From the IMG/VR virus record IMGVR_UViG_3300035698_011381: a stretch of 57,510 nt of DNA; one strand, 5' to 3'. Position numbers and translations under genes: made by a program. Under the pieces are notes generated by a model, which ran no database searches, had not been told where the DNA came from, and was given only the letters and a program-made list of their open reading frames with translations. Shown in pieces: positions 16,989 through 54,143 of the stretch (position 1 is the first letter of the stretch; every line of letters begins with the position of its first letter). This DNA comes from a virus.

Positions 16989-18362
16989 TTAGTCCTTAAC
17001 GCCGTCGTTAAGGTCACGGTCTACTTCCACGGCTTCTTCGTGCATTTTACCGAGAGTGTCGAGGCCGTCGAGATTGATCTGGGATGTGATCGAGCGCAGG
17101 CGGAAGTCGTTCTCTTCGAGTTTCAAGTCCCCGTTTTCGTCGTTGTTGCCGAGGGTCGAGGCCAAGACCTTCTGCACGATCTGCTGAGCTGGGCCGATGC
17201 GCAGGAGCTGGAAGCCTACCAACGAGCTTGAGAACTCGTTCGACGCGCCGAGCTTACCGGAGATCTGGATACCTGCGAGCAGAGGCGGTACTCCGTGAGC
17301 TGTAACAATGTTCAGAGCGAACGTTTCGTTATCCTTGGTAAACTGGTCTTCAGTTTTCATGTCGGCGGCGAGCTTGATGGCTTCCACTTTGGCGTCGGGA
17401 CTAGCGATATTCAGTGCCATGTTCTTGTAGTTGTTGCCCTCGCCGGACGTGCCGGTGACATTGTCGTTGATGGTTTTCCAATCGTCCTCGTCTACCTTCG
17501 CACCGGTGATAGAAAGAATGAAATCCATCACGCCGCGATTGTGATAAAAATCGGCCTTGTACTGCTTGGCCTTTTTCAGCAGGTCGATGTCGATTGCCGC
17601 CGCGAGCCAAGAAGGGTAGCCGTAATATTTAACGCGATTACTGGGCTCTTGGAAAACGATAACCTCGGATACGGTGTCCTCGGTGTGGGAGGTCGATCCT
17701 TTGTACGGGCCTTCTTCAAGGAGCCACTTTTTGTGTTCCGCTCCGTAACGACTGAAGTACTTCAATGCGCCGCCGGTTTCTTGGACTTGGAAATAGAGGT
17801 GACGCCCGTTCTGGACAAAGCGCACGGATGCCGCAGGAAGGTGGCCGATCCATGTGATGTCCCCCCCTGTGCGAACCACTTCCAAATAACCGGTGCCGGT
17901 GTCGAGGAAGTCTTCTACTGCCGTCAGTAACTCGGGAGAAAATCCGAAATGAGTACGAGGGTCGAGCGCGGTGTCCGCGTCCGATTTAACGTAGGGTGCT
18001 CCCGTGAGCAGGGAAGCGACCTCAGCGGCGTGCTCCTCGGTAGCATCTATCGCGCCGTCGTTGTTGATGTCCTTGTCAGACAGGAAACCAAGGCCTGCTA
18101 TACAGTTCTTCTTGGTGACGATACAGGTAGCGTGGTGGGGTGATTTGTCCTTGAGCGCGAGGGCGGCTTTAATGTTGAGCGGCGGCGGAAGAACCTTCTG
18201 ACCTTGGAGAACTTCCGCGTTCGACCCTGCAGGCTCCGTGGTGCCTTTACTCCCGGAGATCGTAGTCAGAGCGTACATCTCACTTCCGGCACCCTTAAAC
18301 AACGGAGCGGGCGGTCGGGAACATACATTCGATACATTGAAGTTTTTGTCTTTGTCGCTCAT
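16989..18362 (-). CDS. Portal protein (PBSX/P2 gpQ-like family)
   Basis: YYGYPSWLAAAIDIDLL, the size (~457 aa) and an acidic C-terminus. The ATG at 18362 is preferred over the TTG at 18389. Confidence 0.7.
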   Translation of the reverse strand: MSDKDKNFNVSNVCSRPPAPLFKGAGSEMYALTTISGSKGTTEPAGSNAEVLQGQKVLPPPLNIKAALALKDKSPHHATCIVTKKNCIAGLGFLSDKDINNDGAIDATEEHAAEVASLLTGAPYVKSDADTALDPRTHFGFSPELLTAVEDFLDTGTGYLEVVRTGGDITWIGHLPAASVRFVQNGRHLYFQVQETGGALKYFSRYGAEHKKWLLEEGPYKGSTSHTEDTVSEVIVFQEPSNRVKYYGYPSWLAAAIDIDLLKKAKQYKADFYHNRGVMDFILSITGAKVDEDDWKTINDNVTGTSGEGNNYKNMALNIASPDAKVEAIKLAADMKTEDQFTKDNETFALNIVTAHGVPPLLAGIQISGKLGASNEFSSSLVGFQLLRIGPAQQIVQKVLASTLGNNDENGDLKLEENDFRLRSITSQINLDGLDTLGKMHEEAVEVDRDLNDGVKD

Positions 18363-18500
18363 AATATAGTCCCTTATAAGTCGCCGCAATACGGATTAAA
18401 AGCAAGGAGCGAGACCGTCTCTCCCAGCAAGCAATCCGCGTAAACGGCATATTCAAAATCTAAAGCACAGAGTACACGCGGGTGCGGTTCCGGTCAAGGA

Positions 18501-34593: not shown

Positions 34594-35673
34594 TTACACG
34601 ACCGACATGGACACGTTCTCGTCAGCGCGGTAGAACCACGGCAGAGGACGGGTCTTCAGGATATTGATGAGAACACTCGGCTCTTCTTTTTCAATAACCC
34701 GTGCGAGTCGTTTGGTAACGTCCAGACCTTCGCGCATTGCCTTCAGGTCAGGAATACGACCGTAGAACATCGTGCGGTTGGACTGAGCGGTCTGCGTGAG
34801 CTGAACGAACTCGAAGTACCCGGCGCGGATGAACGTGGTCACAGTGCCTGTGCCGTCTGCTTTGTAGGAAGCGTTGTACTCCCAGAAGCGGACTCCACCG
34901 AGAACACCAATGAAGCGCATGCCGTTTTCGGCATACGTAGCGATCATGGAAGTGTTCGGGTTGAAGATCGAGGCATCCTTATCGAGGACAACGGTTTCGG
35001 CGGTGATGAGGTCGTCGAGCGCGTCTGCGGCAGTGCTGTCACCGATAGCGTCCGTAACAGAACCAACTTCGTTCGTGTTGCAGAGACGCTGGATGATTTT
35101 GATGTCGCCACGAGGATCGGGGCTTCCGCCGTTCCACAACCCGTTAGGAGCCGCGAAGGTATTTCCGGCAGGCTTACGCATGTCGATGGAGAAAGACGCT
35201 TTGCCTTCGATGGAATACGAGATGGAGCCGGTCAGTGCCTGAGCAACCATCCACTCTTCCCTCTTATTGCAAACCTTTTCAAGTTTTGCGAGGTCGTCAG
35301 CGATCTGTTGCATAGCGTTTTCGCCAGCGACATCGGTTCCTCCGTCGGAAAACACGATAGGGCTCCCAGCACGCCGCTCGAAAAGGAGCTGTTGTGCCGT
35401 AAGCGGACGCTTGACAGAGATCATCGGGGTCGCAAACGTGTACGACTGGCCGTTGTTCTGACTGACGTTTACGGCTTCGCCGTTAACTTCGATGAACGGA
35501 GCGAGTTCGTCTTCGCCCGTCAACTCGTCCACTTGGACGGTTTCGGTCATCAATGTGCGGTGCGTTGCATCTGGAAAGAGCATTGCGGTGAGTGCACGGC
35601 GGGGGCGTTCAGTCCGATTAACTAACCGGGTCAGTTCGCGTGTTTCAATGGCTTCTACGGGATCAGCGGGCAT
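34594..35673 (-). CDS. Major capsid protein (lambda gpE-like family)
   Basis: AGGAGG RBS; 359 aa. The layout parallels lambda gpE (e.g. EEWMVAQALTG, ...FYGRIPDLKAMREG..., C-terminal PLPWFYRADENVSMSVV), and a decoration-like gene precedes it. Confidence 0.75.
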   Translation of the reverse strand: MPADPVEAIETRELTRLVNRTERPRRALTAMLFPDATHRTLMTETVQVDELTGEDELAPFIEVNGEAVNVSQNNGQSYTFATPMISVKRPLTAQQLLFERRAGSPIVFSDGGTDVAGENAMQQIADDLAKLEKVCNKREEWMVAQALTGSISYSIEGKASFSIDMRKPAGNTFAAPNGLWNGGSPDPRGDIKIIQRLCNTNEVGSVTDAIGDSTAADALDDLITAETVVLDKDASIFNPNTSMIATYAENGMRFIGVLGGVRFWEYNASYKADGTGTVTTFIRAGYFEFVQLTQTAQSNRTMFYGRIPDLKAMREGLDVTKRLARVIEKEEPSVLINILKTRPLPWFYRADENVSMSVV

Positions 35674-36393: not shown

Positions 36394-37554
36394 TTAGCGG
36401 CCTTGGGGCATCATGGCGTCCATTTTCTTCGAGGTGTCCGCCTTATTCAAGGCTTTGTCTTCCGTAGAAAGTTGGTCGGTCGGGGTGGTGGCATTGGAGC
36501 CTTTTACGCCGGAAACGTCAGCGGCGGGGGTGATAGCGTCGAGGTACGCCTGAACAGAGGCGGGGTCTTGCCAGTCAACGGCGGCTTCGAGCTTGGCAGA
36601 TGCCAGCTTTGCGGCGTGTGCCTTCACGTCGTCGGGGTTTTTAAGGTCGCCCACAAATTCGATGGGAGTTTCAGCGACTGCGGCTGGAACTTCTTCTTCT
36701 TCGGGCTTCACAACAGCAAGGACGGCTTCCGTCACGCTGGTTACGATCTCTGCTTTCATAGCGGCGATTTCTTCGGGTGTCATTACATCCTCCTGTTGGT
36801 TCTGTTTTGCTTTGAGATCTTCGTTAAGACCCACCACAGCGTTCTTAAAGTCAGTACGTTTGAGGAAATCCCGACATTTAGCAAGGAAATTTTTATCTTC
36901 TTCCTCGTTTTTTTGTTCGAGGAATGCCTTAGCCTTGTCGGGGAGCTCGGCCCCGAGGTGACTCATGTCCAATGTAGCGGCGATTTTAACTTCCTGCGCG
37001 AGCACTTCTACGTGGTTAAATTGTTCCGCCATTTCGTTGGCAGTGAGCCATGTTTCAGCGTCCATAATTTTCTGAATGTCGGCTTCGGTTCCTTTAAAGT
37101 GGCGCAGGTAGGAAGCGATCAGTGCCGACTGCATGGTATCGAGTGTGTCTGCATCCTTACGGAGTTCCTCGGCATTTCCTACGGTGTACATGAGGGGGTT
37201 ATGGATGAACCCGAGCGTGTTGGTCGGCATGTAAATCTTGTCGCCCGCCATGGCGATGACAGATGCGATGGATGCGGCCACGCCGTCCACGTAAACATGA
37301 ACTGGTGCTGGGTGCTGTACCAGATAATTGAAAATAGCGATGCCGTCGATGACTGAACCGCCCGGAGAGTTGATGTGCACTTCGAGAAGAGCTACGTCGC
37401 CGAGGTCTTGGAGCTGTGCCTGAAAATATCCGGCATCCCATGCGTCGCCATACCAATCCCAGCCGACTTCGCCGGAAATATCGAGTCGTCCAACTTTTTC
37501 GCCGTCGCGTTGGATGGTGAGAGCGTTTTTAATTTGTAAAATTTTAGCTGGCAT
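36394..37554 (-). CDS. Prohead protease (ClpP/S49 family) with a C-terminal scaffold-like region
   Basis: HINSPGGSVIDGIAIFNYL and VDGVAASIASVIAMAG (active-site Ser context). The C-terminal half is charged and coiled. Confidence 0.85.
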   Translation of the reverse strand: MPAKILQIKNALTIQRDGEKVGRLDISGEVGWDWYGDAWDAGYFQAQLQDLGDVALLEVHINSPGGSVIDGIAIFNYLVQHPAPVHVYVDGVAASIASVIAMAGDKIYMPTNTLGFIHNPLMYTVGNAEELRKDADTLDTMQSALIASYLRHFKGTEADIQKIMDAETWLTANEMAEQFNHVEVLAQEVKIAATLDMSHLGAELPDKAKAFLEQKNEEEDKNFLAKCRDFLKRTDFKNAVVGLNEDLKAKQNQQEDVMTPEEIAAMKAEIVTSVTEAVLAVVKPEEEEVPAAVAETPIEFVGDLKNPDDVKAHAAKLASAKLEAAVDWQDPASVQAYLDAITPAADVSGVKGSNATTPTDQLSTEDKALNKADTSKKMDAMMPQGR

Positions 37555-37600
37555 CTTTGTTCTCCTACTTGTCGGACGATGGCACTTTTTACGTGCCTCG

Positions 37601-38164
37601 TCAACGGTTTTGAGTCGGTATCGTTCTTAAAACAACACCGCCGTACTTCTGGTAATCTTGAATGGTGGCCATAACATCCTGCTTGATGCCTTGGTATTCG
37701 TCGCATACAATGAGTAGTTTTTCTGCGCAAATGCCTTGGAAACCTGCAACACTGCGAGCCGAGATAGTGGACAACCCCCACACATGCTTCTGTTCCCCAA
37801 ACAGCCCCGCTCCTGTTTTTCTCAGGGTATAAAAGGAACTTAATCGAGGGTCTGCTTTCTCTAAAATCTTTTTACACTCAGTTAACCAGATATGTATTGA
37901 TTGGTTTAGGGTTGGACACACTACTAGACACCTTCCTTGTGTGTTTTTAAGCAACCACCACAAAGAAGCCACCACAGTTGCTGTGGTTCTCCCTTCCCCC
38001 CTATCCCATTCAATGTCCGTGCTTTCGGGGCAACGTGTAAAAGAGTCCAAAAACTCTTTCTGTCTTTCTCTAGGAGAGAAATTAAGTGCCGTGCAAAAAG
38101 CACCTATATTTGGGGTTATTTTCGTCAGGTAATCATATATTTCTCTTTTAGGTTCTTTACCCAT
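37601..38164 (-). CDS. Stand-alone paralog of the large-terminase ATPase domain (no intein, no nuclease domain)
   Basis: AAGGAGAC RBS. It aligns by eye with the TerL exteins: DPRLSSFYTL vs DPRISSFFNF, HVWGLS vs DIWGCY, AGFQGI vs EAFQGI, LLIVCDEYQGI vs LLMLCEESSGI. The P-loop reads GEGRTT where TerL has GQGPGK-T. Confidence 0.7.
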   Translation of the reverse strand: MGKEPKREIYDYLTKITPNIGAFCTALNFSPRERQKEFLDSFTRCPESTDIEWDRGEGRTTATVVASLWWLLKNTQGRCLVVCPTLNQSIHIWLTECKKILEKADPRLSSFYTLRKTGAGLFGEQKHVWGLSTISARSVAGFQGICAEKLLIVCDEYQGIKQDVMATIQDYQKYGGVVLRTIPTQNR

Positions 38165-38200
38165 TTGATAGTCTCCTTTAGTTGCTTATTTTATGGTTCC

Positions 38201-40906
38201 CTACGCGGTTAGGACTCGTGTACTGGCGACTGCGTGTGGGTAGTGGCCTAAAACCACGCTGTCAGCCTCGTCTGGAGACATCCCGAGCTCCCCATCGGAC
38301 GAATCAGCGTTGCGTTTTTTATACTCGTCCTTGGTTTCGATCTTAATTTTGCCGTGTTTGGTCACGGAATACAGTCGGTTTGTAAGCTGTTGAAAGAGAC
38401 TTTTATTGTACTGTAGGAACATACGGTGGGCACGAACCTCTTTAGCAAACAAGCACCACGCTTCCGTGATTTTATTGTCGTATTTTTGCGACTCGTGCGC
38501 CGTGTTTTGGGAATAGAACTCGTGCATCTTCCTTCCCATGCGTCTTTGACTGCCGAGCATCCCTGCGGCCATCTCTCCCATGCCGGAAGTATCCACAACA
38601 AACGTACATTCGCTGTTACCCCATCCCAGATGTTCTTGCAGTACGACAGCCCTGTCTATGGTGGCGTTCGGGTCGGTGCGGCTGTAGGCTTCTAGCTTCA
38701 GCATGATATTTCCTGAGAATGTAGAGATTGAGTTTTTGTCTCCGCCGTATCGAGCCAAGTCGATGCCGATTTGTTTCCGAACCGGCCGCATCTTGACATT
38801 TACCGCCAGTGCCGCCGCTTTTGCCTCTGGTTTGGTGCACGCGAGGAGGTCGTTTTCGTTGATAAGCACTGACGGGTCGGTGTGCGGAAATTCCCCGAGC
38901 ACGCGGACGCGGTAAACATCGGAATCCATGCCGAATTCCTCGGCGATTTCTTCATTTCGACGCTTGGAAAACCAAGGGGTTTCCGGTGTCTCTTCCCCAT
39001 TCCAGTGTAGGCAGTGCCAAGGGTTGTCCAGTTGGGAATGGAAACAGTCGAAGAAGGAGCAAGTTCGTGTGTTCGGGTTTCCGATCTGGAGCCATAAGAA
39101 GGTACCTTCGGCGTTGGACATCGTTCCCTTGATCGTGTCCATGATTCCTCGTGCGATACCGGAGCTTTCTTCGCACAACATGAGCAGGTAGGGGTTATGG
39201 ATTCCCTGAAACGCTTCTGGCCGGTTAGCGGTGGCAAGGTAGCACCCCCAGATGTCTTTACGACTTCCCATAATGCCGTACCCTGTGCCGGTGAAGTTGA
39301 AAAAGGAACTGATACGCGGGTCGCCTGATTGTATGCGTCCCTGAGCCTCTGAGAGCCATACGTTTTTACACTGCCGCATTGTCGGGGCTGTGACGACCGC
39401 GAGGCTCTTCGGATACTTGAGATTCCACCACGGCACGACTATGGCGTCGGCGGCGGTATTATGGACAACCAGATTTCTAGCCACGAAATTTCCATACTCT
39501 GGCACCTCTAAATCGTAGACGGGCGTGTTTGTCCTGTCTTGTGTGTTACTGACAACCCGCACCCAGTAAATATCGTTCGATGCCCACTTAGCGTGTTTGC
39601 CATCGTATCCTGTAGCCGATACGAGTTCTTTGAATTTTTTCCTGCTCAATAGAGAGTAGTTGCGCCCTCTCCACCCTTTTTCCCGCAGACGTGTCTTGGG
39701 GATACCTAATTCTTCCGCTATCTCGGTCATCGCTTTGTCGTCATAGGGAACAACGTCGGTGTTTGTGTTTTCTGGCTTACTCCAGATGTTCGTCAGATAG
39801 TTTACGTGTCCTTTTTTTATTTTATCAAACGAGTGGAAACCTTTAAGTATCTCCACGTAAAAGAGCACCAGAGATTCCCTGCCTGAGATACTTAGACGCC
39901 AAGAGTCAAATGTTTTCGTTCCCAATTTAACTTTTTTATACCTTTTCCTGCTGTGGATACCCCAAAAAAGTAGTGCTGTTTGCACATCGTCTATCAGCCC
40001 TTCACTGGCTAGGCAGATGCCTGCTCCATCCTTCTCAAAGTACCCGTCGCACAGCCACAAAGTAGCCAGTATCTCAGCCGCCCTGTCCTGCCGGATACTC
40101 CAAAATCTATCCGGCAATCTTTTGTGTTTGGCTAACGATCTTTTTGACCACCGAGACAACACATCGTTTGACGCTTTGTGGTGCACCCTTATGTCCCGAG
40201 CTTTGGAGGGCGACGAACTGTTGAGGTATGTCATCTCTAAAGAATTACAGCAGTGTAGGAAATCATCCAAACTATCGGAAGGTTCTTGCGTGAAACGAAC
40301 TCCGTGCTTGGCTGTTGTTCCTCCGTCGCCAAGGATGTAGCCTACCCACCTTACTTCCTCGCTGGGTACTTCTTCAGTTCCTACCCATTGAAGGTTACGA
40401 GGCATGGCTACAAGGCATCCGTTAGTTATCTCAGACGCTTCTTGCCATCCCGAACTAGTATATACAGGGTGGTCGGTGCTGAGCCGTGTAGACTGCCCTG
40501 AATCTGTTCTAATTGTTGTGCATTTCTTGTATCCTGATGGGAAACACCTAGCACTTGCTGTGTGTGTTTTTTCTGTTGCCTCATCCATGCTCCAAACAAG
40601 AAGGTCTTCTCGCCCTATAAGGTCTCTGATTTTTTTAACTCCCTCGGACGTTAGTATTTCGGTATCTCCGTGAAGGCATTTCCCCGGCCCCTGCCCGGAG
40701 CGCACGGCAACGTTCGAGTACCCTTCTTGAACAGCGTCGAGGAGCTGTTTCTGTTGCCACGTCGGTTTAAAATCCAGATAGAAGCACCAAGCATAGATAT
40801 CCTCAGTAATTTCTTTGTAGAAGTCGTGTAGGAAGTGCTTAGACTTAGAGGGCCGAAGGCCGAACATTTCGCCTTCTGACTGTCGCTTGTTTTCTATCCC
40901 GAACAT
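38201..40906 (-). CDS. terL: Terminase large subunit, interrupted by an intein
   Basis: Walker A SGQGPGK/T is split by the intein. Walker B is LLMLCEES. The RNase-H-like nuclease motifs are IGIDLARYGGD and VVDTSGMG. The spliced product would be 494 aa. Confidence 0.85.
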   Translation of the reverse strand: MFGIENKRQSEGEMFGLRPSKSKHFLHDFYKEITEDIYAWCFYLDFKPTWQQKQLLDAVQEGYSNVAVRSGQGPGKCLHGDTEILTSEGVKKIRDLIGREDLLVWSMDEATEKTHTASARCFPSGYKKCTTIRTDSGQSTRLSTDHPVYTSSGWQEASEITNGCLVAMPRNLQWVGTEEVPSEEVRWVGYILGDGGTTAKHGVRFTQEPSDSLDDFLHCCNSLEMTYLNSSSPSKARDIRVHHKASNDVLSRWSKRSLAKHKRLPDRFWSIRQDRAAEILATLWLCDGYFEKDGAGICLASEGLIDDVQTALLFWGIHSRKRYKKVKLGTKTFDSWRLSISGRESLVLFYVEILKGFHSFDKIKKGHVNYLTNIWSKPENTNTDVVPYDDKAMTEIAEELGIPKTRLREKGWRGRNYSLLSRKKFKELVSATGYDGKHAKWASNDIYWVRVVSNTQDRTNTPVYDLEVPEYGNFVARNLVVHNTAADAIVVPWWNLKYPKSLAVVTAPTMRQCKNVWLSEAQGRIQSGDPRISSFFNFTGTGYGIMGSRKDIWGCYLATANRPEAFQGIHNPYLLMLCEESSGIARGIMDTIKGTMSNAEGTFLWLQIGNPNTRTCSFFDCFHSQLDNPWHCLHWNGEETPETPWFSKRRNEEIAEEFGMDSDVYRVRVLGEFPHTDPSVLINENDLLACTKPEAKAAALAVNVKMRPVRKQIGIDLARYGGDKNSISTFSGNIMLKLEAYSRTDPNATIDRAVVLQEHLGWGNSECTFVVDTSGMGEMAAGMLGSQRRMGRKMHEFYSQNTAHESQKYDNKITEAWCLFAKEVRAHRMFLQYNKSLFQQLTNRLYSVTKHGKIKIETKDEYKKRNADSSDGELGMSPDEADSVVLGHYPHAVASTRVLTA
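39458..40678 (-). mobile_element. Intein (407 aa) with a LAGLIDADG homing endonuclease, inserted in the TerL P-loop
   Basis: Starts CLHGDTEILT (block A). STDHPVY is block B. VGYILGDGG and LWLCDGYF are LAGLIDADG motifs. It ends VYDLEVPEYGNFVARNLVVHN, followed by +1 Thr. Confidence 0.85.
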
Positions 40907-40923: not shown

Positions 40924-41196
40924 CTAGTGGTCGTTCAGTGCGCGTTGCGCGGACAGCTTGTTCAGTATCTCAATGGTGTCCATCAGCTCGTCTTGAAGCT
41001 CTTTAACGACGTACTCTTCGGCGAGTGTGATGTCACGGGGAGCTGTGTATATCTGTCCCTGCTTCAGTACTAGCCAGCCGCCCGGCGAGACGCGCTCTAC
41101 GAGCTTCACGCTTGAGCAGGAGACCAGCACGGTCATGCTGGCCAGAAGCACGATAATCTTCGATTTGTTTTTCCAATTCTTCGATCTCATCTTCAC
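40924..41196 (-). CDS. Lipoprotein, o-spanin-like
   Basis: Signal peptide plus lipobox IIVLLASMTVLVSC|SS. It starts inside ORF 41033..41296 in another frame. ATG at 41190 or GTG at 41196. Confidence 0.55.
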   Translation of the reverse strand: MKMRSKNWKNKSKIIVLLASMTVLVSCSSVKLVERVSPGGWLVLKQGQIYTAPRDITLAEEYVVKELQDELMDTIEILNKLSAQRALNDH

Positions 41197-41296
41197 ACCT
41201 CTCGTACTCGTCGAGAACGATCCGACGAGATTTTATTTGCAATATCGTGTTCCAAGCCTTTAGAGCTTCGTGTAGTACGAGAAAAAAAGCCTTCAT
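41033..41296 (-). CDS. Hypothetical charged coiled-coil protein overlapping the lipoprotein gene
   Basis: GGAGG RBS; 87 aa. There is no clear N-terminal TM segment, so calling it an i-spanin is weak. Confidence 0.35.
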   Translation of the reverse strand: MKAFFLVLHEALKAWNTILQIKSRRIVLDEYERCEDEIEELEKQIEDYRASGQHDRAGLLLKREARRARLAGRLASTEAGTDIHSSP

Positions 41297-41333
41297 TATC
41301 GCTCCTCCGGCTCGGGCACAATACGCGGTACGG

Positions 41334-41498
41334 TTATTTCGCCAGTAGTTTGTTCAACCACGCAAGGATCTTGGCGATGATCGCGTCATCCTTGGTGTTT
41401 TTTGTGAACCGTGCGATGACTGCAAGCGTGGTCATAAGTCCTGCCGCGCCAGAAGCTATTGCGATGTAGTTTTCTTGAATCCATGCGATTGCATTCAT
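41334..41498 (-). CDS. Small membrane protein, holin-like (54 aa, below the ORF-track cutoff)
   Basis: AAGGAG RBS. MNAIAWIQENYIAIASGAAGLMTTLAVIARFTKNTKDDAIIAKILAWLNKLLAK. Confidence 0.5.
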   Translation of the reverse strand: MNAIAWIQENYIAIASGAAGLMTTLAVIARFTKNTKDDAIIAKILAWLNKLLAK

Positions 41499-41571
41499 AA
41501 TGATCTCCTTTTCTATCCCGCTTTATTGCGGAAAATACAAAAACCGATTTGCTTTACGTGCTGGTAGCTAT

Positions 41572-41664
41572 TCATGCGAAGGCTTTCGCGACTAAATAAC
41601 CGATTGCTAGACCGAAGCACACAGCCGCAGATAATCTAATAAGCGAGAGGAGAAGATCCGCCAT
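41572..41664 (-). CDS. Possible 30-aa hydrophobic peptide
   Basis: MADLLLSLIRLSAAVCFGLAIGYLVAKAFA; weak RBS. Confidence 0.25.
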   Translation of the reverse strand: MADLLLSLIRLSAAVCFGLAIGYLVAKAFA

Positions 41665-41680
41665 TATCTGAGATACTGTT

Positions 41681-42121
41681 TTATGGATTCTCAATGGATT
41701 GCCGCCTCTCTGTTTCTAGGTCAACGAGTCGCCCTTCCATGCGGTCAACCCGCTCGACAAACCAAGGTTGCGGGGATTCCTTTGGGATGGCGGCAATGAT
41801 CTTGGCCAGTTCGGTGATTTTCTCGGTGAGCTTAATGCCATTCTGGACGGTGAACCGATTGGAAGCCGTCTCAGCCTTCCATATTTGCAGAGCACTCACA
41901 GAGTTGTCCATTTTCTCCTGCCGAGCCTGTAGAGCATTGATTGTTTCGGTGGTCGTTTGCTGAGTCACGGTCATGTTCCACAACAGGGCGAAGATCCACG
42001 CCGCACATCCTATGGCTAAAATCATTAAACCGTCGAGCAACCATCGCCCAACCAGTTTTGCTTTGTCACTTATCCGCCCGTTGCTTTGTGTTGTCATAAT
42101 ATTTCCATTTCTATGGCCCAC
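41681..42121 (-). CDS. Membrane-anchored coiled-coil protein
   Basis: TM segment WLLDGLMILAIGCAAWIFALLW followed by a coiled region. An alternative ATG is at 42097. Confidence 0.5.
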   Translation of the reverse strand: MGHRNGNIMTTQSNGRISDKAKLVGRWLLDGLMILAIGCAAWIFALLWNMTVTQQTTTETINALQARQEKMDNSVSALQIWKAETASNRFTVQNGIKLTEKITELAKIIAAIPKESPQPWFVERVDRMEGRLVDLETERRQSIENP

Positions 42122-45980: not shown

Positions 45981-46072
45981 GCCCGCCCCGCCCGCCCGAT
46001 TAAAACAGATTTGAAAACATAATATTGACACGTTACTCTTTATCTGTTACGCGTGCCCGCGTTCCTATAAGC

Positions 46073-46295
46073 GCGGGCCGGTATACGCGGGCCGGTATAG
46101 GATACAGGATACAGCGGGCCGGTATAGGATACAGGATACAGCGGGCCGGTATAGGATACAGGATACGCGGGCCGGTATACGCGGGCCGGTATACGCGGGC
46201 CGGTATAGGATACAGGATACAGCGGGCCGGTATACGCGGGCCGGTATAGGATACAGGATACAGCGGGCCGGTATAGGATACAGGATACGCGGGCC
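46073..46295. repeat. Iteron-like array: 10 full copies plus one partial copy of GCGGGCCGGTATA, separated by either C or GGATACAGGATAC(A)
   Basis: Core copies start at 46073, 46087, 46114, 46141, 46167, 46181, 46195, 46222, 46236 and 46263, with a partial copy at 46289. Confidence 0.95.
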
Positions 46296-46552
46296 CCGTG
46301 ATCGTACCTTTTACATTTTTAAAAACTAGGCCTGATTTGAAGATCACGAAAAAAGGCCGGGTTGCTCTTGTAAATTTAAAAAACACTACTTTTCGGGATA
46401 TAGGGGGGAAAATACGGTTTACGCTTGTATTTTTAAAAAAGGGCCCTTTTTTGAAGATCAATATAATGACCCCTTCACAATTCCAAATAACCACGTATTT
46501 TTAATTTTACACAATCTTAAAAGGTAACTAATATATATTTGAAAACTTTTAA

Positions 46553-46582
46553 TATATACCATATAACCCATAGTGGTATATA
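46553..46582. repeat. Inverted repeat tatatacca-N12-tggtatata in the AT-rich segment
   Basis: Perfect 9-bp arms. The related tatatataccata recurs near 46706. Confidence 0.8.
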
Positions 46583-46783
46583 TAAAACATATTTGAGTTA
46601 AATAGTTTTTCGCGCTCGATCGCCACAATTCCGGATACCCGGCACTTTTTAAATTTACAAGCCGATATTCCCTTTTATCTTTGTAAGTGTTTCATTTTAG
46701 CTTTTTATATATACCATAGGAATCAGCACTATCCGTCTATAGCGCTCTATTTTTAAAAAACAAAAGAAAATTGAAAAAGAGGG

Positions 46784-46811
46784 TTGACATATAGATGGGG
46801 CGTGCTAAATT
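46784..46811 (+). promoter_or_regulatory. Sigma70-like promoter candidate for the early block
   Basis: TTGACA, a 16-nt spacer containing TGc, then TAAATT (an extended -10-like element), about 50 nt upstream of the first RBS-supported early ATG. Confidence 0.45.
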
Positions 46812-46862
46812 GACATTATGAAAACAGCCCAAAACAGAAACCAACCAAAAGGAGTCAAGATT

Positions 46863-47087
46863 ATGCGAGAGTCAATAGAAATAGTTAAACTAGCGCCAAG
46901 CCGCTACGAAGTGCAGATAGTTAAAGATGACCCTAAATTTGATAAGAGCTACAGCATAGCGGGCGAATACAAAACCCTCTCTATTGCTATCAGTACCGCA
47001 AAGCGTATTGCAAAAAGAAATGGCGGAATGATAATAGGCAGGCCGTCCACAGCAAACGAAAAGAGAGCCGCAAAGAGGATTGCCTAA
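46863..47087 (+). CDS. Early hypothetical protein
   Basis: AAGGAG RBS before the ATG at 46863, in frame with track ORF 46818..47087. Confidence 0.55.
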   Translation: MRESIEIVKLAPSRYEVQIVKDDPKFDKSYSIAGEYKTLSIAISTAKRIAKRNGGMIIGRPSTANEKRAAKRIA

Positions 47088-47125
47088 CCATGTTCAAGAC
47101 AGAAACCAAACCAAAGGAGAACATC

Positions 47126-47296
47126 ATGACAATTAGAACGCTCAAAGCAATCAATAAGAAAACCGGAGAAACGAAATCATTCTGTGATTGTGATTGCAAC
47201 AGACTGATAAAGCGGCGGGATGAGTTCATATCCGACATGACAGATCGCGGGGAATACTGGACTTACGCCCCAGTCTCTATTGTATCGGGAATCTAA
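47126..47296 (+). CDS. Early hypothetical protein
   Basis: AAAGGAGA RBS before the internal ATG of track ORF 47090..47296. Confidence 0.5.
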   Translation: MTIRTLKAINKKTGETKSFCDCDCNRLIKRRDEFISDMTDRGEYWTYAPVSIVSGI

Positions 47297-47342
47297 AAAC
47301 CCGCCCACGCAAGGGGCAAAGTAAACGCATAAAGGGGAAAAG

Positions 47343-47435
47343 ATGAAACGTGAATCTGAACTCATAAACGAGCTAATAGTAATAATCGTATCGGCTGTAA
47401 TCGTAGCACTAATCATTGCTGTAAAAACAGCGTAA
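47343..47435 (+). CDS. 30-aa hydrophobic peptide
   Basis: AAAGGGGAAAAG leader. MKRESELINELIVIIVSAVIVALIIAVKTA. Confidence 0.4.
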   Translation: MKRESELINELIVIIVSAVIVALIIAVKTA

Positions 47436-47452
47436 AGAATAAAGGGGAAAAA

Positions 47453-47626
47453 ATGAAAGCACCTACAGAAGCACTTAATAAGAAAATAAACGAGCTTGCA
47501 ACTCTATGTAATAACATTAGCACCTACCTTTCCGGGTGCCATAGCGAAAACGAACAAACAGCCGCACTTATAAAGAGTATAGTCACTAGGCTTTGGGATG
47601 AATTAGACACTATCCCAGAAAAGTAA
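47453..47626 (+). CDS. Early hypothetical protein (57 aa)
   Basis: AAAGGGGAAAAA leader. MKAPTEALNKKINELATLCNN... Confidence 0.45.
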   Translation: MKAPTEALNKKINELATLCNNISTYLSGCHSENEQTAALIKSIVTRLWDELDTIPEK

Positions 47627-47649
47627 TTAAACGAAAAAAAGGGGAAAAG

Positions 47650-47802
47650 ATGACACTTGAAAAACAGATTATGAGAGAAGAATTAACCATGTTGAAAGAA
47701 GAACTAAAAGAAGCGGTTGCGCTATACCGCCGCGAGCCTAACGACTGGAATGGAGAGTCCGTTTCCGATTTACGCGAGGAAATCGCAAAGCTAGCACGCT
47801 AA
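47650..47802 (+). CDS. Early coiled-coil protein (50 aa)
   Basis: AAAGGGGAAAAG leader. MTLEKQIMREELTMLKEELKEAV... Confidence 0.45.
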   Translation: MTLEKQIMREELTMLKEELKEAVALYRREPNDWNGESVSDLREEIAKLAR

Positions 47803-47850
47803 CCGGTTCGCCCCACGCAAGGGGCAAAGTAAACGAAAAAAGGGGAAAAG

Positions 47851-48027
47851 ATGACACTTGAAAAACAGATTAGAAACGCATACGAGAAAGCCTATGGGGT
47901 CAAAACAGTTGACTATGAAGGCGAAATTTCCAAAGAAAAAAATACAATCGCCGTCGAAATTTGCGAAGATGGAACGGTTTTTGAACATGAGAAAGGTGGC
48001 GTTTCTTACGTTAAAATAATAATTTAA
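47851..48027 (+). CDS. Early hypothetical protein (58 aa)
   Basis: Same leader and the same first 7 codons (MTLEKQI) as 47650..47802. Confidence 0.45.
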   Translation: MTLEKQIRNAYEKAYGVKTVDYEGEISKEKNTIAVEICEDGTVFEHEKGGVSYVKIII

Positions 48028-48054
48028 AATGAGATTCAACTAAAAGGGGAAAAG

Positions 48055-48327
48055 ATGAAAGCCACGAAATTAAAGTACCTAACAGATAAAAACGGAAAAG
48101 AGCCTTTCTTTTCAGACTTGAAAGAAAAAGGGCGTATAGTAACAGAGCCACTTCATTGTCACACTGCCGGACTTATGCAAACTTCGACAGGATACGGTTC
48201 AAAACTAGCTACGCCCTACAAAATAAATGACTGTAACAGACTGAAAAGAATTTACGCCATTTGTTACAGCAACGCTTCCAGTTTATATATTTTCCGCAAA
48301 GACAAGCGCGTCTTTATCCATAGCTAA
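48055..48327 (+). CDS. Early hypothetical protein
   Basis: AAAGGGGAAAAG leader; MKATK start. Confidence 0.55.
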   Translation: MKATKLKYLTDKNGKEPFFSDLKEKGRIVTEPLHCHTAGLMQTSTGYGSKLATPYKINDCNRLKRIYAICYSNASSLYIFRKDKRVFIHS

Positions 48328-48357
48328 CAGCATAAAGAAAGAAGGGGAAAAGAAACC

Positions 48358-48606
48358 ATGAAAACGAAACTAGAAAAACAGGCCAAAGGGGAAAAGATGA
48401 CAAAGACAGAATCAAGAATATCAACAGGGAAAAATGATTATCTCTCTATCACCTTGCGGGGGAAGTTCGCGGCAGAATACAAATTCGACTTCATACTCTT
48501 GAAATGTTTTGTTTGCATTGGAGCAGATTTGTTTCCCTCAGCAATCCACGAATACACCGACAAGCAAGATATGTTTGCCGACATTGAAAAACTACGCAAC
48601 GCATAA
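48358..48606 (+). CDS. Early hypothetical protein
   Basis: GAAACC-ATG-AAA leader. An alternative start at 48396 also has a GGGGAAAAG leader. Confidence 0.5.
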   Translation: MKTKLEKQAKGEKMTKTESRISTGKNDYLSITLRGKFAAEYKFDFILLKCFVCIGADLFPSAIHEYTDKQDMFADIEKLRNA

Positions 48607-48616
48607 AGGGGAAAAG

Positions 48617-48793
48617 ATGAAAGCCACGAAAACGCGCTACAAGAAAATTGATCTATACGTTTACAATCCTGTTACAAAACAATTTGCATACTACGCATCC
48701 ACTACATGGCACGGGACACGCAAGAGCGCAAAAAGGATGCTAGTTGATAAACTAATGATTAAGCCGGAACACGTCAAAGCATCAGTGGCATAA
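48617..48793 (+). CDS. Early hypothetical protein (58 aa)
   Basis: AAAGGGGAAAAG leader; the MKATK start is identical to that at 48055. Confidence 0.5.
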   Translation: MKATKTRYKKIDLYVYNPVTKQFAYYASTTWHGTRKSAKRMLVDKLMIKPEHVKASVA

Positions 48794-48814
48794 ACCCGAA
48801 AAGGAAAAGAAACC

Positions 48815-48925
48815 ATGAAACCGAAAAAAAGAAACACGCCCGGCACGTACAAAACCCCTTCGATCTTCACCCTCTTAAAAGAGTATTTTAAAGAGTACCG
48901 CGCCCGGCACGCCCGAAACATTTAA
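48815..48925 (+). CDS. Possible 36-aa basic peptide
   Basis: AGGAAAAGAAACC-ATG leader; it terminates at the TAA inside the first 27-bp repeat unit. Confidence 0.3.
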   Translation: MKPKKRNTPGTYKTPSIFTLLKEYFKEYRARHARNI

Positions 48926-48976
48926 AACAGACTGAAACCCCGAAACATTTAAAACAGACTGAAACCCCGAAACCCC
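48915..48976. repeat. 27-bp tandem repeat x2.3 (gaaacatttaaaacagactgaaacccc)
   Basis: Units at 48915..48941 and 48942..48968, then a partial gaaacccc. Confidence 0.9.
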
Positions 48977-48994
48977 ATAGAAGGAAAAGAAACC

Positions 48995-49864
48995 ATGAAA
49001 ACGAAAAAAAGCAAAATAGAACAAGCTACAGTAGAAACATACTTGCCGATATTTCCCGGATTTTACGGTACACTATACGGCGCGGAGGATTCCGACGACG
49101 AAGAGCAGGCGATAAACGGCCTGTTAGAGCCCGCGGGATTTGCGCCCTCTCAAATAAACCCACTCTCAAAGGCTGTTTTCGACTTTGGAAGCGGCGCTGT
49201 AGAATTCGACTATTCCACATACTACCGCGATTATCTGGAAGAAATATCGGAAACCGTAGCGGCGGAATTGGAAGGTGTGCCGGGTTTCGTTTCTATGGAA
49301 CTACAAGGAATGAGGAGCCCGAAAGAATACAATTTTGCAAATGATTCCGGCGACGTTATTTTAAACCTATCAAATGAAAGGGCCTTTCGGGCGTGGATTT
49401 TAAAACAGTGCCGAATTGATCGTGCCGGGTTTGCGGAATACATACGGAAAAAATACACGTCTCGAAGCGGTTTTATGTCTTTTTATTCCAGTGACTCGAA
49501 AGACTGGATAAATGACATACGGGCCGGGCTCGACGAATTAGACGGGCACAAACTAGGCAGACTGTTAGACTATTATTTTTCCGAAATATCGGAGTTTGAC
49601 GACTGGGCACTTTACGAAACAGCAGAAAAGCCTTACTTGTCGGAATACATGAGTGGGCCGGTAGTCGATATTTTTGAGAAGGAAATGGGAAACCTACCGG
49701 AAAAGGTTTCCGGTATACTCGAAAGCATAAACGCGGGCCGGGAACAATTGAAAGCGTACGCGGAAAAGATGCCTTGTAACGCGGCAGCCCGCCAAGAGAC
49801 CGGGCTAATCAAAAACGAAACGAAACTTTATAAGGCGGCAGTCGAAACACTTATAGAAGCGTAA
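48995..49864 (+). CDS. Early hypothetical protein (289 aa)
   Basis: Cassette leader. It starts MKTKKSK...YLPIFPGFYGTLY and is acidic. Confidence 0.6.
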   Translation: MKTKKSKIEQATVETYLPIFPGFYGTLYGAEDSDDEEQAINGLLEPAGFAPSQINPLSKAVFDFGSGAVEFDYSTYYRDYLEEISETVAAELEGVPGFVSMELQGMRSPKEYNFANDSGDVILNLSNERAFRAWILKQCRIDRAGFAEYIRKKYTSRSGFMSFYSSDSKDWINDIRAGLDELDGHKLGRLLDYYFSEISEFDDWALYETAEKPYLSEYMSGPVVDIFEKEMGNLPEKVSGILESINAGREQLKAYAEKMPCNAAARQETGLIKNETKLYKAAVETLIEA

Positions 49865-51458: not shown

Positions 51459-54143
51459 ATGAAAACGAATACACCTATCAGCACACCCGCCGAAACACTC
51501 GACCTATCAGAAACCACGTACCCCGGCCAGCGTACCCGCCCCGCCGAAGATGTAGAAAATACCGAGATTCTTAAATGGGCAAGCGAAGCCGGGCCGCGAC
51601 AGACTGCCGACGTAAAAAAAGCCTTCGGTAAGGTACTCGGGGCCGGAAGCGGCACGCGGGTCCTGTCCTCGTGGCCCGACGGCTCAGAACATGAGAGCGT
51701 ACAGTATATCATGGGATGCCCGACCGACGAGGAACAGACACACAAAAACAAACAGACTGACGCGCTCAATGTTTTACACGCGGCGCACGGCGGGAAAATC
51801 ACGCGGGAAAATTGCCGCGCCCTCATAGCCGCCGCGCTAGAACTAATCCCAACCCTTAGAGACTGCCAACCGGTACGCGACGAGCGCAAGAGCATAGAGC
51901 AACACGCGACGGAAGCCGAAGAGCGGAAAGCCGCGCAGGAAAAGAGGGAAGAAAAACAGGCAGAAGAAAAAGCGAAAAAATGGGCGGAAGAGGAGACCGC
52001 CGCGCTTGATTACCCCTACCTTTCCCGCGTAGGGGGGAGCGGGGGCGGAAAAGATGCCGCTAAAAATATAAGACTGACCTTGAAAAAGGAGTTTCCCGGT
52101 ATTCGTTTCTCGGTAACTTCTGACTATTCTAGAGTTCAAATAAACTGGAACGACGGCCCGACCGCCGACCAAGTCGAAGCCTTCACAAATAACTTTAAAG
52201 AAGGACACTTTGACGGGATGACAGACAGTTACAACTACAACTCGACCGCGTTTAACGACGCTTTTGGGGGATGTCGATACATTTTCACGAGCCGAAACAC
52301 GCGGGAGCTTCTGCAGACTGTAAAAGCCGCACTTCCAGAAATGGGCAACCTCGACGACTGGGAAACGGAACAACATAAAAACCGGAAAGCGCGGGAGCTG
52401 ATTAGTAAAACAGACTTGACCGGAAAAGGTGCCTTTCTCGCAGTGATCGACCCCGAAGAGGGGACGGGGTGCCACGTTGTAGAGCTCGCGCTAAAGTTTG
52501 AAGAGACCACGGCACCCGCGACCGACGCCGCCCGTCAAACGCCCGCCACGGGGCCGGTGACTATCGAAGAGCACACACACACGAAAAAAGGCTTTCAGAT
52601 GTGGCTTGTGAGACTATCCGACCGCGTAGAGCGCGACGAGTTCCAAGCACTCAAAAGCACCGCGCAGGGGCTGGGGGGTTGGTACTCTCGCAAGTGGGGC
52701 ACGACCCCCGCAGGCTTCGCGTTTAAGACTCCCGAAGCCGCGCAGACTTTCGCGGACGGCATCGCGGGCACCGACCCCGAGCCGACGGGCACCGACGCGC
52801 CGCCGACAGACTCCAAAGCCGAAGCAATCCCAGCACCTTACAACGTCCAGAGTGCCGACTACACGCCCGAGGAGAAAGAAGTCAAAGCGAGAACCGTGGG
52901 ACAACTGCCGCACCCTCTACGCCTTCCGGCCCTCGCGGACATCGGGCGGGCTATCGGAACGGAAAAGGAAATAAAGTTCGGCTGGTGGCTGTCTATGAGT
53001 CTCGACCTCACACGGGGCGAAGAGGACGGGCACCCGCTCAAAGAGTACATGAGGACGACCGGCGACAATCTGCCGCTCTCGCTTCTCAACTGGAAGCCGG
53101 AGCCGGAGCCGGAGCCGGAACCCTACGGCACCGACCCGCACGAAACAACAGACTGCGACACGCCCCGCCCAAACTCAGCCGCTAACAGTGCCGAGAAGCT
53201 CCGCGCCATGGCCGACCGCCTGACTTCCCAGATCGAAGATAAAACCCGCGACATGACCCAGATCCCGACGCCCAAGCGCAATTTAGAATATAAGGCGCGG
53301 ATGATCGAAGGGCACCACCTCGAACGGGTACAGACTGCCGCGCGGGTTCTGGCCGACGGTCTCGAAGCGGGCACCCTCCCGCCTATCTTGCAGACCGTCC
53401 GAACGAAAAAGGACTTGCTCAAATACACGGAGACACGTTCCGACATGTCCGGGGGTTATTATTCCATTGTTGACACCGGCGAGTTTTCCGACACGTCACC
53501 GGCGGCGGTAGCGTTACTGACTCTCCTCAAAGAGGCCAGCGACCCCGAAGCGGAAGCGGCACGGAAAAAGGAGACTGAATTAAAGAATAAAATTCTGAAC
53601 CTCACGGGGCAGAAAATCCCCGGATTCTTCCCGACGCCGTGCGCCGTAGCGGAGAAAATGCTCGACGCCCTCGACATTCAAGAAGGGGAGACTGTTCTTG
53701 AGCCTTCCGCCGGTACCGGGAACCTAGCAGAACGAGCCCGAGACGCGGGAGGGGTCGTGACGTGTGTAGAAATACGCCCGAGCCTGTGCGAGATCCTAGA
53801 ACTAAAAGGGTTCATTACTTTCTGCGAAGATTTTACAAACCCCAACGGGGAAGATACTGGAATCTCTCGATTCGATAAAGCGATAATGAACCCGCCCTTT
53901 GAAAAGGGACAGGATGCCGACCACATCCGCGCCGCTTACCACTGCCTTAAAGACGGCGGACGGCTCGCGGCTATCGCTGGGGAAGGTATTTTCTTCCGCA
54001 CTGACTCGAAGGCTACCGCCTTCCGCGACTGGCTCGAAGAGGTAGGCGGCACGTCGGAACAACTCCCGGCGGGGTCGTTCCAAGGTACCGGCGAAGTATC
54101 CCAGACCGGTACAGATACGCGCCTCGTCATCATTACACGCTAA
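51459..54143 (+). CDS. Large polyvalent early protein with a C-terminal gamma-class N6-adenine DNA methyltransferase domain
   Basis: C-terminal motif I VLEPSAGTGNLA precedes motif IV IMNPPFEKG. The upstream modules include GIRFSVTSDYSRVQINWNDGPTADQVEAFTNNF and HTHTKKGFQMWLVRLSDRV...GGWYSRKWG, linked by EPEPEPEP. Confidence 0.75.
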   Translation: MKTNTPISTPAETLDLSETTYPGQRTRPAEDVENTEILKWASEAGPRQTADVKKAFGKVLGAGSGTRVLSSWPDGSEHESVQYIMGCPTDEEQTHKNKQTDALNVLHAAHGGKITRENCRALIAAALELIPTLRDCQPVRDERKSIEQHATEAEERKAAQEKREEKQAEEKAKKWAEEETAALDYPYLSRVGGSGGGKDAAKNIRLTLKKEFPGIRFSVTSDYSRVQINWNDGPTADQVEAFTNNFKEGHFDGMTDSYNYNSTAFNDAFGGCRYIFTSRNTRELLQTVKAALPEMGNLDDWETEQHKNRKARELISKTDLTGKGAFLAVIDPEEGTGCHVVELALKFEETTAPATDAARQTPATGPVTIEEHTHTKKGFQMWLVRLSDRVERDEFQALKSTAQGLGGWYSRKWGTTPAGFAFKTPEAAQTFADGIAGTDPEPTGTDAPPTDSKAEAIPAPYNVQSADYTPEEKEVKARTVGQLPHPLRLPALADIGRAIGTEKEIKFGWWLSMSLDLTRGEEDGHPLKEYMRTTGDNLPLSLLNWKPEPEPEPEPYGTDPHETTDCDTPRPNSAANSAEKLRAMADRLTSQIEDKTRDMTQIPTPKRNLEYKARMIEGHHLERVQTAARVLADGLEAGTLPPILQTVRTKKDLLKYTETRSDMSGGYYSIVDTGEFSDTSPAAVALLTLLKEASDPEAEAARKKETELKNKILNLTGQKIPGFFPTPCAVAEKMLDALDIQEGETVLEPSAGTGNLAERARDAGGVVTCVEIRPSLCEILELKGFITFCEDFTNPNGEDTGISRFDKAIMNPPFEKGQDADHIRAAYHCLKDGGRLAAIAGEGIFFRTDSKATAFRDWLEEVGGTSEQLPAGSFQGTGEVSQTGTDTRLVIITR

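Follow-up and report, generated by a model that had tools for sequence, protein, structure and literature searches.

The stretch of DNA analysed here, referred to as the window, is the 57,510-nucleotide (nt) virus record IMGVR_UViG_3300035698_011381 from IMG/VR, which appears to be the complete genome (about 57.5 kb) of a siphovirus-type phage. Our subject is a small gene on its minus strand, lying between the gene for the large terminase subunit (terL, encoding TerL) and the gene for the prohead protease. This gene encodes a 187-amino-acid (aa) mini-paralog of the TerL ATPase core, hereafter called S, and the homologous mini-paralogs of the TerL N-terminal region (TerL-N) encoded elsewhere are called S-type proteins. 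The features of the locus are the following.

37601..38164, minus strand: S gene, a 187-aa open reading frame (ORF), with a BLASTP match to TerL, an AlphaFold2 (AF2) model with a predicted local distance difference test score (pLDDT) of 94.3, Foldseek matches to TerL ATPases, and alignment to positions 2-184 of the 186 in a TerL-N hidden Markov model (HMM).
38171..38178, minus strand: ribosome-binding site of S, AAGGAGAC, 6 nt before the ATG, read from the sequence (reverse complement).
37982..37999, minus strand: P-loop (Walker A-like) GEGRTT, S residues 56-61, with Arg replacing the catalytic Lys, from the alignment with TerL GQGPGK/T (the slash marks the intein boundary).
37697..37717, minus strand: Walker B strand LLIVCDE, S residues 150-156, from the alignment with TerL LLMLCEE; the strand covers residues 150-154 in the AF2 model.
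38201..40906, minus strand: terL, 901 aa including an intein and 494 aa when spliced, the parent-type gene of S; Pfam intein domains, and a family profile matching known TerLs.
39458..40678, minus strand: LAGLIDADG intein of 407 aa in the TerL P-loop (GQGPGK/C...HN/T), from Pfam and the alignment.
36394..37554, minus strand: ClpP-type prohead protease gene, directly downstream of S (Pfam CLP_protease, E 3e-25; PHROG head maturation protease, E 2e-61).
37571..38200, no strand applicable: 630-nt block holding S, an insertion relative to the related locus L005, from blastn of the window against L005.

Comparison of S with the 901-aa TerL by BLASTP gave two collinear segments that flank the intein (S 60-169 with TerL 484-593, 36% identity, E 7e-25, and S 6-59 with TerL 23-76, 30% identity, E 3e-6), so that S matches TerL on both intein sides, and against the spliced TerL a single collinear alignment was obtained (S 6-169 with TerL 23-186, 34% identity, E 8e-34). 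A preliminary description of this DNA, made from the letters and a list of ORFs, had claimed that S aligns with the N-terminal ATPase part of the spliced TerL; this E value confirms it, and the pairwise or profile comparison which that description proposed thus finds significant similarity to the TerL ATPase domain. All the motif pairs that it named are present (DPRLSSFYTL/DPRISSFFNF, WGLS/WGCY, GFQGI/AFQGI and LLIVCDE/LLMLCEE), the P-loop GEGRTT (Lys to Arg) lies at the intein position as it had stated, being seen as GEGR/TT opposite GPGK/T, and the ORFs and alignments agree with it that S is intein-free, nuclease-less and directly downstream of the intein-bearing terL. S retains the Q-motif Gln, the P-loop glycines and Thr, the QG motif and the Walker B DE, the last within a stretch that follows the hhhhDE pattern (LLIVCDE, residues 150-156).

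An exhaustive HMM search with S over 1.84 billion proteins returned 480 matches at E <= 1e-3; most of the best 150 listed are of TerL length and, among the matches listed, TerLs of 440-575 aa predominate, together with several complete short proteins. Annotated terminases were also matched by tblastn of S. The AF2 model, built from a 65-sequence alignment (a run from two sequences only gave pLDDT 41 and was discarded), has a pLDDT of 94.3 and a predicted template modelling score of 0.90, and its top 18 Foldseek matches in the PDB are all TerL structures, with the TerLs of P74-26 (4znk, E 5e-6) and PhiV-1 among the best; against T4 gp17 (2o0h) Foldseek gave TMq (query-based template modelling score) 0.78 and a root-mean-square deviation of 2.9, and in BFVD the named top matches are large terminases. 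A Pfam scan of S found no domain, and its sole PHROG match is phrog_5902 (unknown function), which TerL matches too. The 901-aa protein is itself, by profile comparison, a genuine though divergent TerL: a phmmer search of its spliced form against the PDB gave nothing relevant, but the family profile aligned with both domains of Sf6 gp2 (E 1e-23) and also matched the ATPase domain of P74-26 TerL, and T4 gp17. By sequence and by predicted fold, S is a member of the TerL ATPase superfamily.

The alignment with the TerL-N HMM (positions 2-184 of 186) ends at the position of motif III (GNP, TerL residues 202-204), and nothing in S matches TerL residues 205 to about 250, so that the lid subdomain is missing. 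The C-terminal RNase H-like nuclease domain is also absent, with the ORF stopping at 37601, 46 nt from the protease start. The preliminary description was therefore right that S stops before the nuclease, but S already ends inside the ATPase domain, at motif III, with the lid also missing. Additionally, the P-loop GEGRTT departs from the Walker A pattern GxxxxGK[ST] at the catalytic Lys. S thus lacks three features of a working TerL ATPase domain, namely the Lys of Walker A, motif III together with the lid, and the nuclease as partner domain. When set beside the ATPase domains of known TerLs (N-subdomain I of T4 gp17, P74-26 TerL and Sf6 gp2), S shares sequence homology and the RecA-like fold, but is a separate 187-aa product which ends at motif III, has neither lid, linker nor nuclease, carries Arg for the Walker A Lys, and evolves several-fold faster than TerL. 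Two trivial explanations were discarded: S is not one half of a split terL, every neighbouring TerL having its own complete ATPase domain, nor is it a frameshifted full-length second terL, only 46 nt following its stop codon.

The S gene lies 36 nt past the terL stop and 46 nt ahead of the protease start, in one operon with both, and no strong terminator-like site was found in the terL-S gap or in the S-protease gap. The strong ribosome-binding site claimed in the preliminary description is indeed found (AAGGAGAC, 6 nt 5' of the ATG) and, given this site and the short gaps within the terL-protease operon, the gene looks expressed. It is not a sequencing error, since four contigs, drawn from assemblies of JGI, Logan and ENA, encode exactly the same protein.

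A survey covered 80 IMG/VR and 80 metagenome loci encoding TerLs of the window's family, and every six-frame ORF in them was compared with HMMs built from the TerL N-region and from the short proteins; some contigs are in both collections, and the counts of upstream loci overlap accordingly. Four lineages carry an S-type gene downstream of terL, namely the window, L001, L012 and L014. On the contigs of the complete short proteins from the HMM search with S, P0011 (182 aa, with GEGKT and VDE) lies between a 500-aa intein-free TerL and the protease in L012/L013, and P0012 (177 aa, with CEGNT and VDG, both degenerate) lies downstream of terL and upstream of the protease in L014/L015. Other copies precede terL: P0047 (190 aa, L017) and P0129 (188 aa, L018/19) are encoded immediately upstream of complete TerLs of 553 and 485 aa, respectively, and P0062 (185 aa, L016), counted among the upstream copies, lies between a transmembrane (lysis-like) gene on its 5' side and an HNH endonuclease gene on its 3' side. 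A TerL-N-like ORF whose stop abuts the terL start, of about 181 aa in most cases, was found upstream in 25 of the 80 IMG/VR and 13 of the 80 metagenome loci. No TerL-N-like ORF was found away from terL when 10-kb flanks were included. The class is thus roughly 160-195 aa long, all copies found abut terL, and those wholly within a contig end at positions 180-184 of the 186 in the TerL-N HMM, that is, at motif III.

The catalytic residues vary widely in this class. Lys becomes Arg in the window and Asn in L014, where DE also becomes DG; L018 has GG and DQ; and the upstream type has lost both Walker A (e.g. IPAQQTT) and Walker B (VILGA). The Lys is kept in L001 and L012 and lost in L014, L016 and L018. 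The QG motif and overall collinearity are kept across the S-type copies, and in the upstream copies the motifs DPxL and QG(L)H are preserved along with the collinear arrangement and the same C-terminus, ...IIMW directly before the stop codon, which corresponds to the strand before motif III. These comparisons show that the catalytic residues can be dispensed with among S homologs. The upstream copies have ratios of nonsynonymous to synonymous rates (dN/dS) of 0.2-0.5 (0.8 in one pair), against 0.06-0.18 in their TerLs, and evolve 2-5 times faster; such estimates show purifying selection acting on them. Their tree mirrors the TerL tree, which points to vertical co-inheritance with terL; their GC content at third codon positions (GC3) equals that of their own TerL, and the type is present in 24 of the 25 members of its clade. 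Two further groups of upstream ORFs, in L039/40 (hhalign probability 74%, E 3e-5) and L077/93/97 (probability 20%, E 1e-3), are probably still more diverged members. A tblastn search of cultured phages with an upstream-type S gave no match.

As far as alignments can show, S arose by duplication of part of a terL belonging to the same subfamily. When 67 TerLs were ranked by similarity, the subclade of the own TerL came at rank 1-2 for the downstream copies (window, L001, L012, L014) and for L017, and at rank 3 for L018, while the degenerate upstream type showed no preference for its own TerL subclade. This ranking favours several partial terL duplications, or gene conversion, over a single ancient event as the probable history. 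A neighbour-joining tree groups most of the short proteins together, with the S-type proteins on long branches for which long-branch attraction is possible, and does not separate single from several duplications.

In the window's own subclade the gene behaves differently from its surroundings. Neither S alone nor a two-sequence alignment, used as query, retrieved related loci from viral or metagenome contigs, and a word-index search of 5.8 billion clustered proteins found only one close homolog, P0002, on the 1.4-kb contig L001. P0002 keeps the Lys (GEGKTT), is directly followed by the protease gene, has its stop codon within two codons of the S stop in the alignment, and aligns with S with a single one-residue indel. 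The two are 49% identical in protein and 56% in DNA, with proportions of synonymous (pS) and nonsynonymous (pN) differences of 0.785 (saturated) and 0.35, while the adjacent proteases are 91% and 88% identical, respectively, with dS 0.56 and dN/dS 0.07. The ORF being intact, with pN below pS despite saturated synonymous sites, S has been kept open under constraint. In blastn the window becomes homologous to L001 at 37611, roughly 10 nt within the S ORF as counted from its 3' end, and its homology with L005 stops at 38201 and resumes at 37570; in L005, which is intein-free and whose TerL is 84% identical to the window's in its C-terminal part, 39 nt without homology to the window lie between the terL stop and the protease gene. 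Composition differs as well, with GC 0.438 and GC3 0.415 in the window S (0.58-0.65 in its neighbours) and GC3 0.41 in the L001 copy (0.54 in the protease). To judge by these divergences, the S alleles are far older than the surrounding backbone, so that S behaves as an exchangeable cassette between terL and the protease gene.

Relatives without the gene were found close by. In L178 (TerL 75% identical to the window's), L179 (67%) and L005, terL runs straight into the protease gene, and S is also absent from L006/L104, L007 and the more distant L021/L103 (in the latter within 10 kb either side). As the closest TerL relatives do without it, S is accessory in this subclade. The terL-protease junction is an insertion hot spot (window 37555..38200; L006 7446..7832; L007 1613..1972; L012 5521..5853; L014 738..1070): some relatives have an S-type gene there, some a reverse-strand ORF of 110-128 aa, L012 and L014 have both, and in L005, L178 and L179 it is empty. 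The reverse-strand ORF resembles both ends of a 357-aa reverse ORF in L017.

These observations bear on whether S is a relic, left over from a tandem terL duplication, or from the replacement of a terL, and now decaying. The loss of the Walker A Lys and of a family-invariant His (His163), the absence from close relatives and the quick evolution of S would all fit such a leftover, but a decaying gene would hardly remain intact as an ORF in four lineages, with pN below pS after synonymous divergence has saturated, keep a strong ribosome-binding site and a fold predicted at pLDDT 94, share its truncation point with independently diverged copies, and have upstream homologs with dN/dS below 1. Decay in relatives, which the preliminary description had named as evidence that would count against its proposal, is not seen between S and the L001 copy (ORF intact, pN 0.35 against pS 0.785), and we consider the relic explanation very unlikely. 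As read from its sequence and model, S is a functional gene whose product, a stand-alone RecA-like core, comprises the N-terminal helices, the P-loop, Walker B and the strand which in TerL leads up to motif III.

The cassette behaviour invites another explanation, in which S would be a conflict gene, that is, a TerL look-alike acting as decoy or blocker of the immune sensors which recognise the TerL ATPase (Avs1-3, Upx), or as a dominant-negative poison of competitor terminases. Its presence or absence varies among close relatives, its boundaries are sharp and cassette-like, its alleles are extremely divergent beside a 91%-identical protease, and its GC3 is atypical; in the literature, EcAvs2 and Upx recognise the TerL ATPase domain alone, and there is a precedent in vs.8 and Avs2. 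According to Evans et al. (Nat Commun 2026, PMC13601566), T4 Vs.8 is a stand-alone protein, as yet uncharacterised, which is homologous to the ATPase domain of T4 TerL, keeps both Walker motifs and is toxic with EcAvs2. The protein (NP_049732, 219 aa) has the P-loop GGRQSGKS and the Walker B IIDEP and, by eye rather than as a tool result, appears to end right after the strand preceding motif III. Like S, it is a small stand-alone TerL-ATPase-like protein in a genome with a complete TerL, and it is the closest precedent for S. The two nevertheless differ in that BLASTP detects no pairwise similarity (E 14), vs.8 is not adjacent to gene 17 in T4 whereas S adjoins terL, and the Walker motifs kept in Vs.8 are lost in many S-type members; hhalign of Vs.8 against S family alignments gave weak collinear matches (probability 2-10%). 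Given the lack of pairwise similarity and the position away from gene 17, Vs.8 is of independent origin, from a different TerL family. Against a role in conflict, a TerL-like protein is expected to trigger the sensors, as vs.8 does, and not to block them, and the upstream-type copies, vertically inherited with TerL and present in 24 of 25 clade members, look like a core function. We regard the conflict explanation as rather unlikely.

The adjoining intein offers a third explanation. The intein of the window TerL (Pfam Intein_splicing, E 5e-21; LAGLIDADG_3, E 3e-10) spans Cys77-Asn483 (407 aa), with Thr at the +1 position, and the preliminary description had suggested that S could be a decoy copy lacking the homing-endonuclease target or a duplication remnant linked to intein invasion. 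It had also proposed a survey of relatives, which yields no pattern of co-occurrence: S-type paralogs accompany intein-free TerLs in L012/L013 (500-aa TerL), L017, L018 and all 38 upstream-type loci, and intein-bearing TerLs without a paralog, with the intein at the same P-loop site, are found in L023/L024 and L070. As each occurs without the other, intein and paralog are independent, and both suggestions lose their ground. At the homing site the S DNA matches the spliced terL in only 32 of 72 positions, a divergence too great for any conclusion on whether it is protected from the homing endonuclease. That S, adjacent to an intein-bearing terL with a recombinant tract around its intein site, is a back-up or decoy copy without the endonuclease target, or a by-product of the invasion, is hence extremely unlikely; besides the distribution just described, S cannot back up TerL, as motif III, the lid and the nuclease are missing.

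The recombinant tract is of interest in itself. Spliced residues about 58-215 of the window TerL (insertion site 76/77) are 58-95% identical to the L012 TerL, rising to 75-95% from about residue 96 on, and only 40-68% identical to L005, while from residue 257 on the window TerL is 85-95% identical to L005, to which the window protease (73%) and capsid protein (87%) are also closest. This mosaic looks like a co-conversion tract from intein homing, with an L012-like donor. The inteins at the same P-loop site in other TerLs of the family lie in open segments 1836..4772 of L023/L024 and 414..4400 of L070, the latter being 1329 aa long, which suggests a second insertion further downstream. GC3 is 0.48 in the intein and 0.415 in S, against 0.58-0.65 in the surrounding structural genes, and is consistent with both being relatively recent or mobile acquisitions.

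If S acts in packaging, the obvious comparison is with the small terminase subunit (TerS). TerS typically evolves faster than TerL under purifying selection and, to our knowledge, many phage groups have no identifiable TerS. No recognisable TerS emerged, in agreement with the preliminary description, when 35 ORFs of the window (those near terL plus 20 more, 151-1523 aa long, from other parts) were scanned against PHROGs and 15 of the 35 against Pfam, and the small genes directly 5' of terL (40924..42121) gave no TerS family match in PHROG and Pfam scans. Like TerS, S is of similar size (about 180 aa), is encoded beside terL (36 nt downstream of its stop) and evolves faster than TerL, and in many relatives the slot classically held by TerS, directly against the start of terL, is taken by an S-type gene; the more distant cultured relative phiCD27 (TerL 32% identical) has in this slot a canonical helix-turn-helix (HTH) TerS, matching HTH_28 and Terminase_5. 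Unlike TerS, S has neither an N-terminal HTH nor a known TerS domain, its fold is RecA-like instead of helical/beta-barrel, and the window copy lies downstream of terL and is absent from close relatives. By the profile scans, S is not a member of any known TerS family.

The strongest form of this comparison holds that S is a true TerS replacement that evolved from the TerL ATPase core, recognises viral DNA, and recruits or activates TerL. Speaking for it are the lack of a recognisable TerS among the 35 ORFs, the S-type genes in the TerS slot of the 38 related loci and of L017 and L018, with lysis genes upstream and no other candidate (in L050, too, the genes upstream of the S-type gene are of lysis type and no other TerS candidate was found), and the faster evolution than TerL under purifying selection. 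Speaking against it are the absence of S from relatives with 67-75% identical TerLs and from L021/L103 within 10 kb either side, the lack of an HTH or other DNA-binding domain and of a known TerS fold, the mostly acidic to near-neutral isoelectric point (pI) of the S-type proteins, and the position of the window S downstream of terL. Since the closest relatives (L005, L178, L179, L021, L006 and L007) do without it, S is not an indispensable TerS in this subclade, and we hold full replacement to be quite unlikely. The stand-in or adaptor option of the preliminary description survives in part: similar proteins in the relatives' TerS slot keep it viable, but a subunit absent from the closest relatives is not indispensable.

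The explanation that we prefer, if tentatively and at somewhat less than an even chance, is that S is a non-motor, TerL-mimicking modulator of the terminase. S is not a second motor, given that the coupling motif, the lid and the nuclease are missing and that the catalytic Lys and Glu are dispensable among its homologs. As a mimic of the TerL ATPase domain, S would bind TerL, or a partner of TerL, through surfaces retained from TerL, and this binding would modulate the assembly or the activity of the terminase. Such a role would fit the TerS-slot position of the S counterparts in related phages and would be unrelated to the intein. Non-catalytic paralogs of ring ATPases (the alpha versus beta subunits of F1-ATPase, the clamp-loader delta/delta' subunits, the RAD51 paralogs) keep the fold, have lost catalysis and act through subunit contacts. 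By analogy, S may be seen as a duplicate of this kind, with catalytic residues lost and the fold kept, but it differs in being truncated instead of full-length, and any membership of S in a TerL ring is conjectural.

Several observations weigh against a modulator. The closest relatives (L005, L178, L179, L021, L006 and L007) are without S in the sequence available, so any part that it plays in packaging in this subclade can be spared or filled by something else. Both the window S and the L001 copy have an atypical composition (GC3 0.41, compared with 0.54-0.65) and are hyper-divergent, a combination commoner in accessory or conflict genes than in core subunits. In addition, no recognisable DNA-binding domain was found in eight S-type proteins (Pfam for all eight, PHROGs for the window S), and the predicted pI of the S-type proteins as a whole is mostly acidic to near-neutral (median 6.5), pI and net charge being uninformative as a proxy for DNA binding; neither pI nor domain scans support a role of S in pac or cos recognition.

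Whichever function applies, the comparison defines a class that recurs, made up of copies of the TerL ATPase core which are truncated, in many cases catalytically dead, encoded beside terL and cut at the same structural point, and this recurrence makes S more than a one-off duplication. Purifying selection on the upstream copies, together with adjacency to terL, makes the mini-paralogs a testable candidate for a non-canonical terminase partner. A bolder proposal, which we rate as unlikely, is that they form a new structural class of terminase small or regulatory subunit, in which a dead, truncated duplicate of the TerL core replaced the HTH TerS in a large clade of uncultured siphoviruses, with the window S, whose Walker motifs are near-intact and which still resembles TerL, as a young stage and T4 vs.8 as a possible convergent third instance. 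Since TerL ATPase domains are the targets of the sensors Avs1-3 and Upx, and T4 vs.8 activates Avs2, the class also has a bearing on the ways in which phages expose their most conserved protein or shield it; each of the two roles, if true, would be new biology, and should the copies prove to be dispensable accessories, they would still show cleanly that part of a core motor gene has been duplicated repeatedly. Our literature search found no paper on TerL-adjacent, catalytically degenerate TerL-N paralogs or on a TerL-derived TerS, which is not proof of absence.

The remainder of the window is arranged as follows. The minus-strand structural operon runs in the order lysis-like small genes, terL, S, protease, a 217-aa protein, major capsid protein, tail genes and portal, and Pfam and PHROG scans place a replication module with DNA polymerase, helicase and exonuclease on the plus strand. 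Two further features belong to the structural operon.

34594..35673, minus strand: lambda-E-type major capsid protein, in the structural operon.
16989..18389, minus strand: portal (E 8.5e-20 to PHROG portal families), closing the tail module at its far end.

Going downstream from terL, the portal is thus reached only after about 20 kb, and such an order is unusual in head modules. In the nine closer relatives inspected, the interval from terL to the prohead protease contains no portal. The lysis-cassette-like small genes directly 5' of terL (40924..42121, minus strand) encode a protein of 88-90 aa with a lipobox-like LVSC, a 54-aa transmembrane protein and a transmembrane protein of 138-146 aa, and the same arrangement, lysis genes followed by terL (or by an S-type gene and terL), is found in L006, L017, L018 and L050. 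A profile search of genome contigs gave only one remote match, for which reason no host could be inferred. On the plus strand, 6801..7709 matches PHROG 842 ('beta-glucosyl-HMC-alpha-glucosyltransferase', E 2e-55), and the 894-aa protein encoded at 51459..54143 has a DNA methyltransferase-like C-terminus, which together hint that the phage DNA may be modified. Finally, the stretch 46001..49000, which separates the end of the minus-strand operon from the genes on the plus strand, is AT-rich (GC 0.40-0.42, against 0.52 overall) and might serve in regulation or as an origin.

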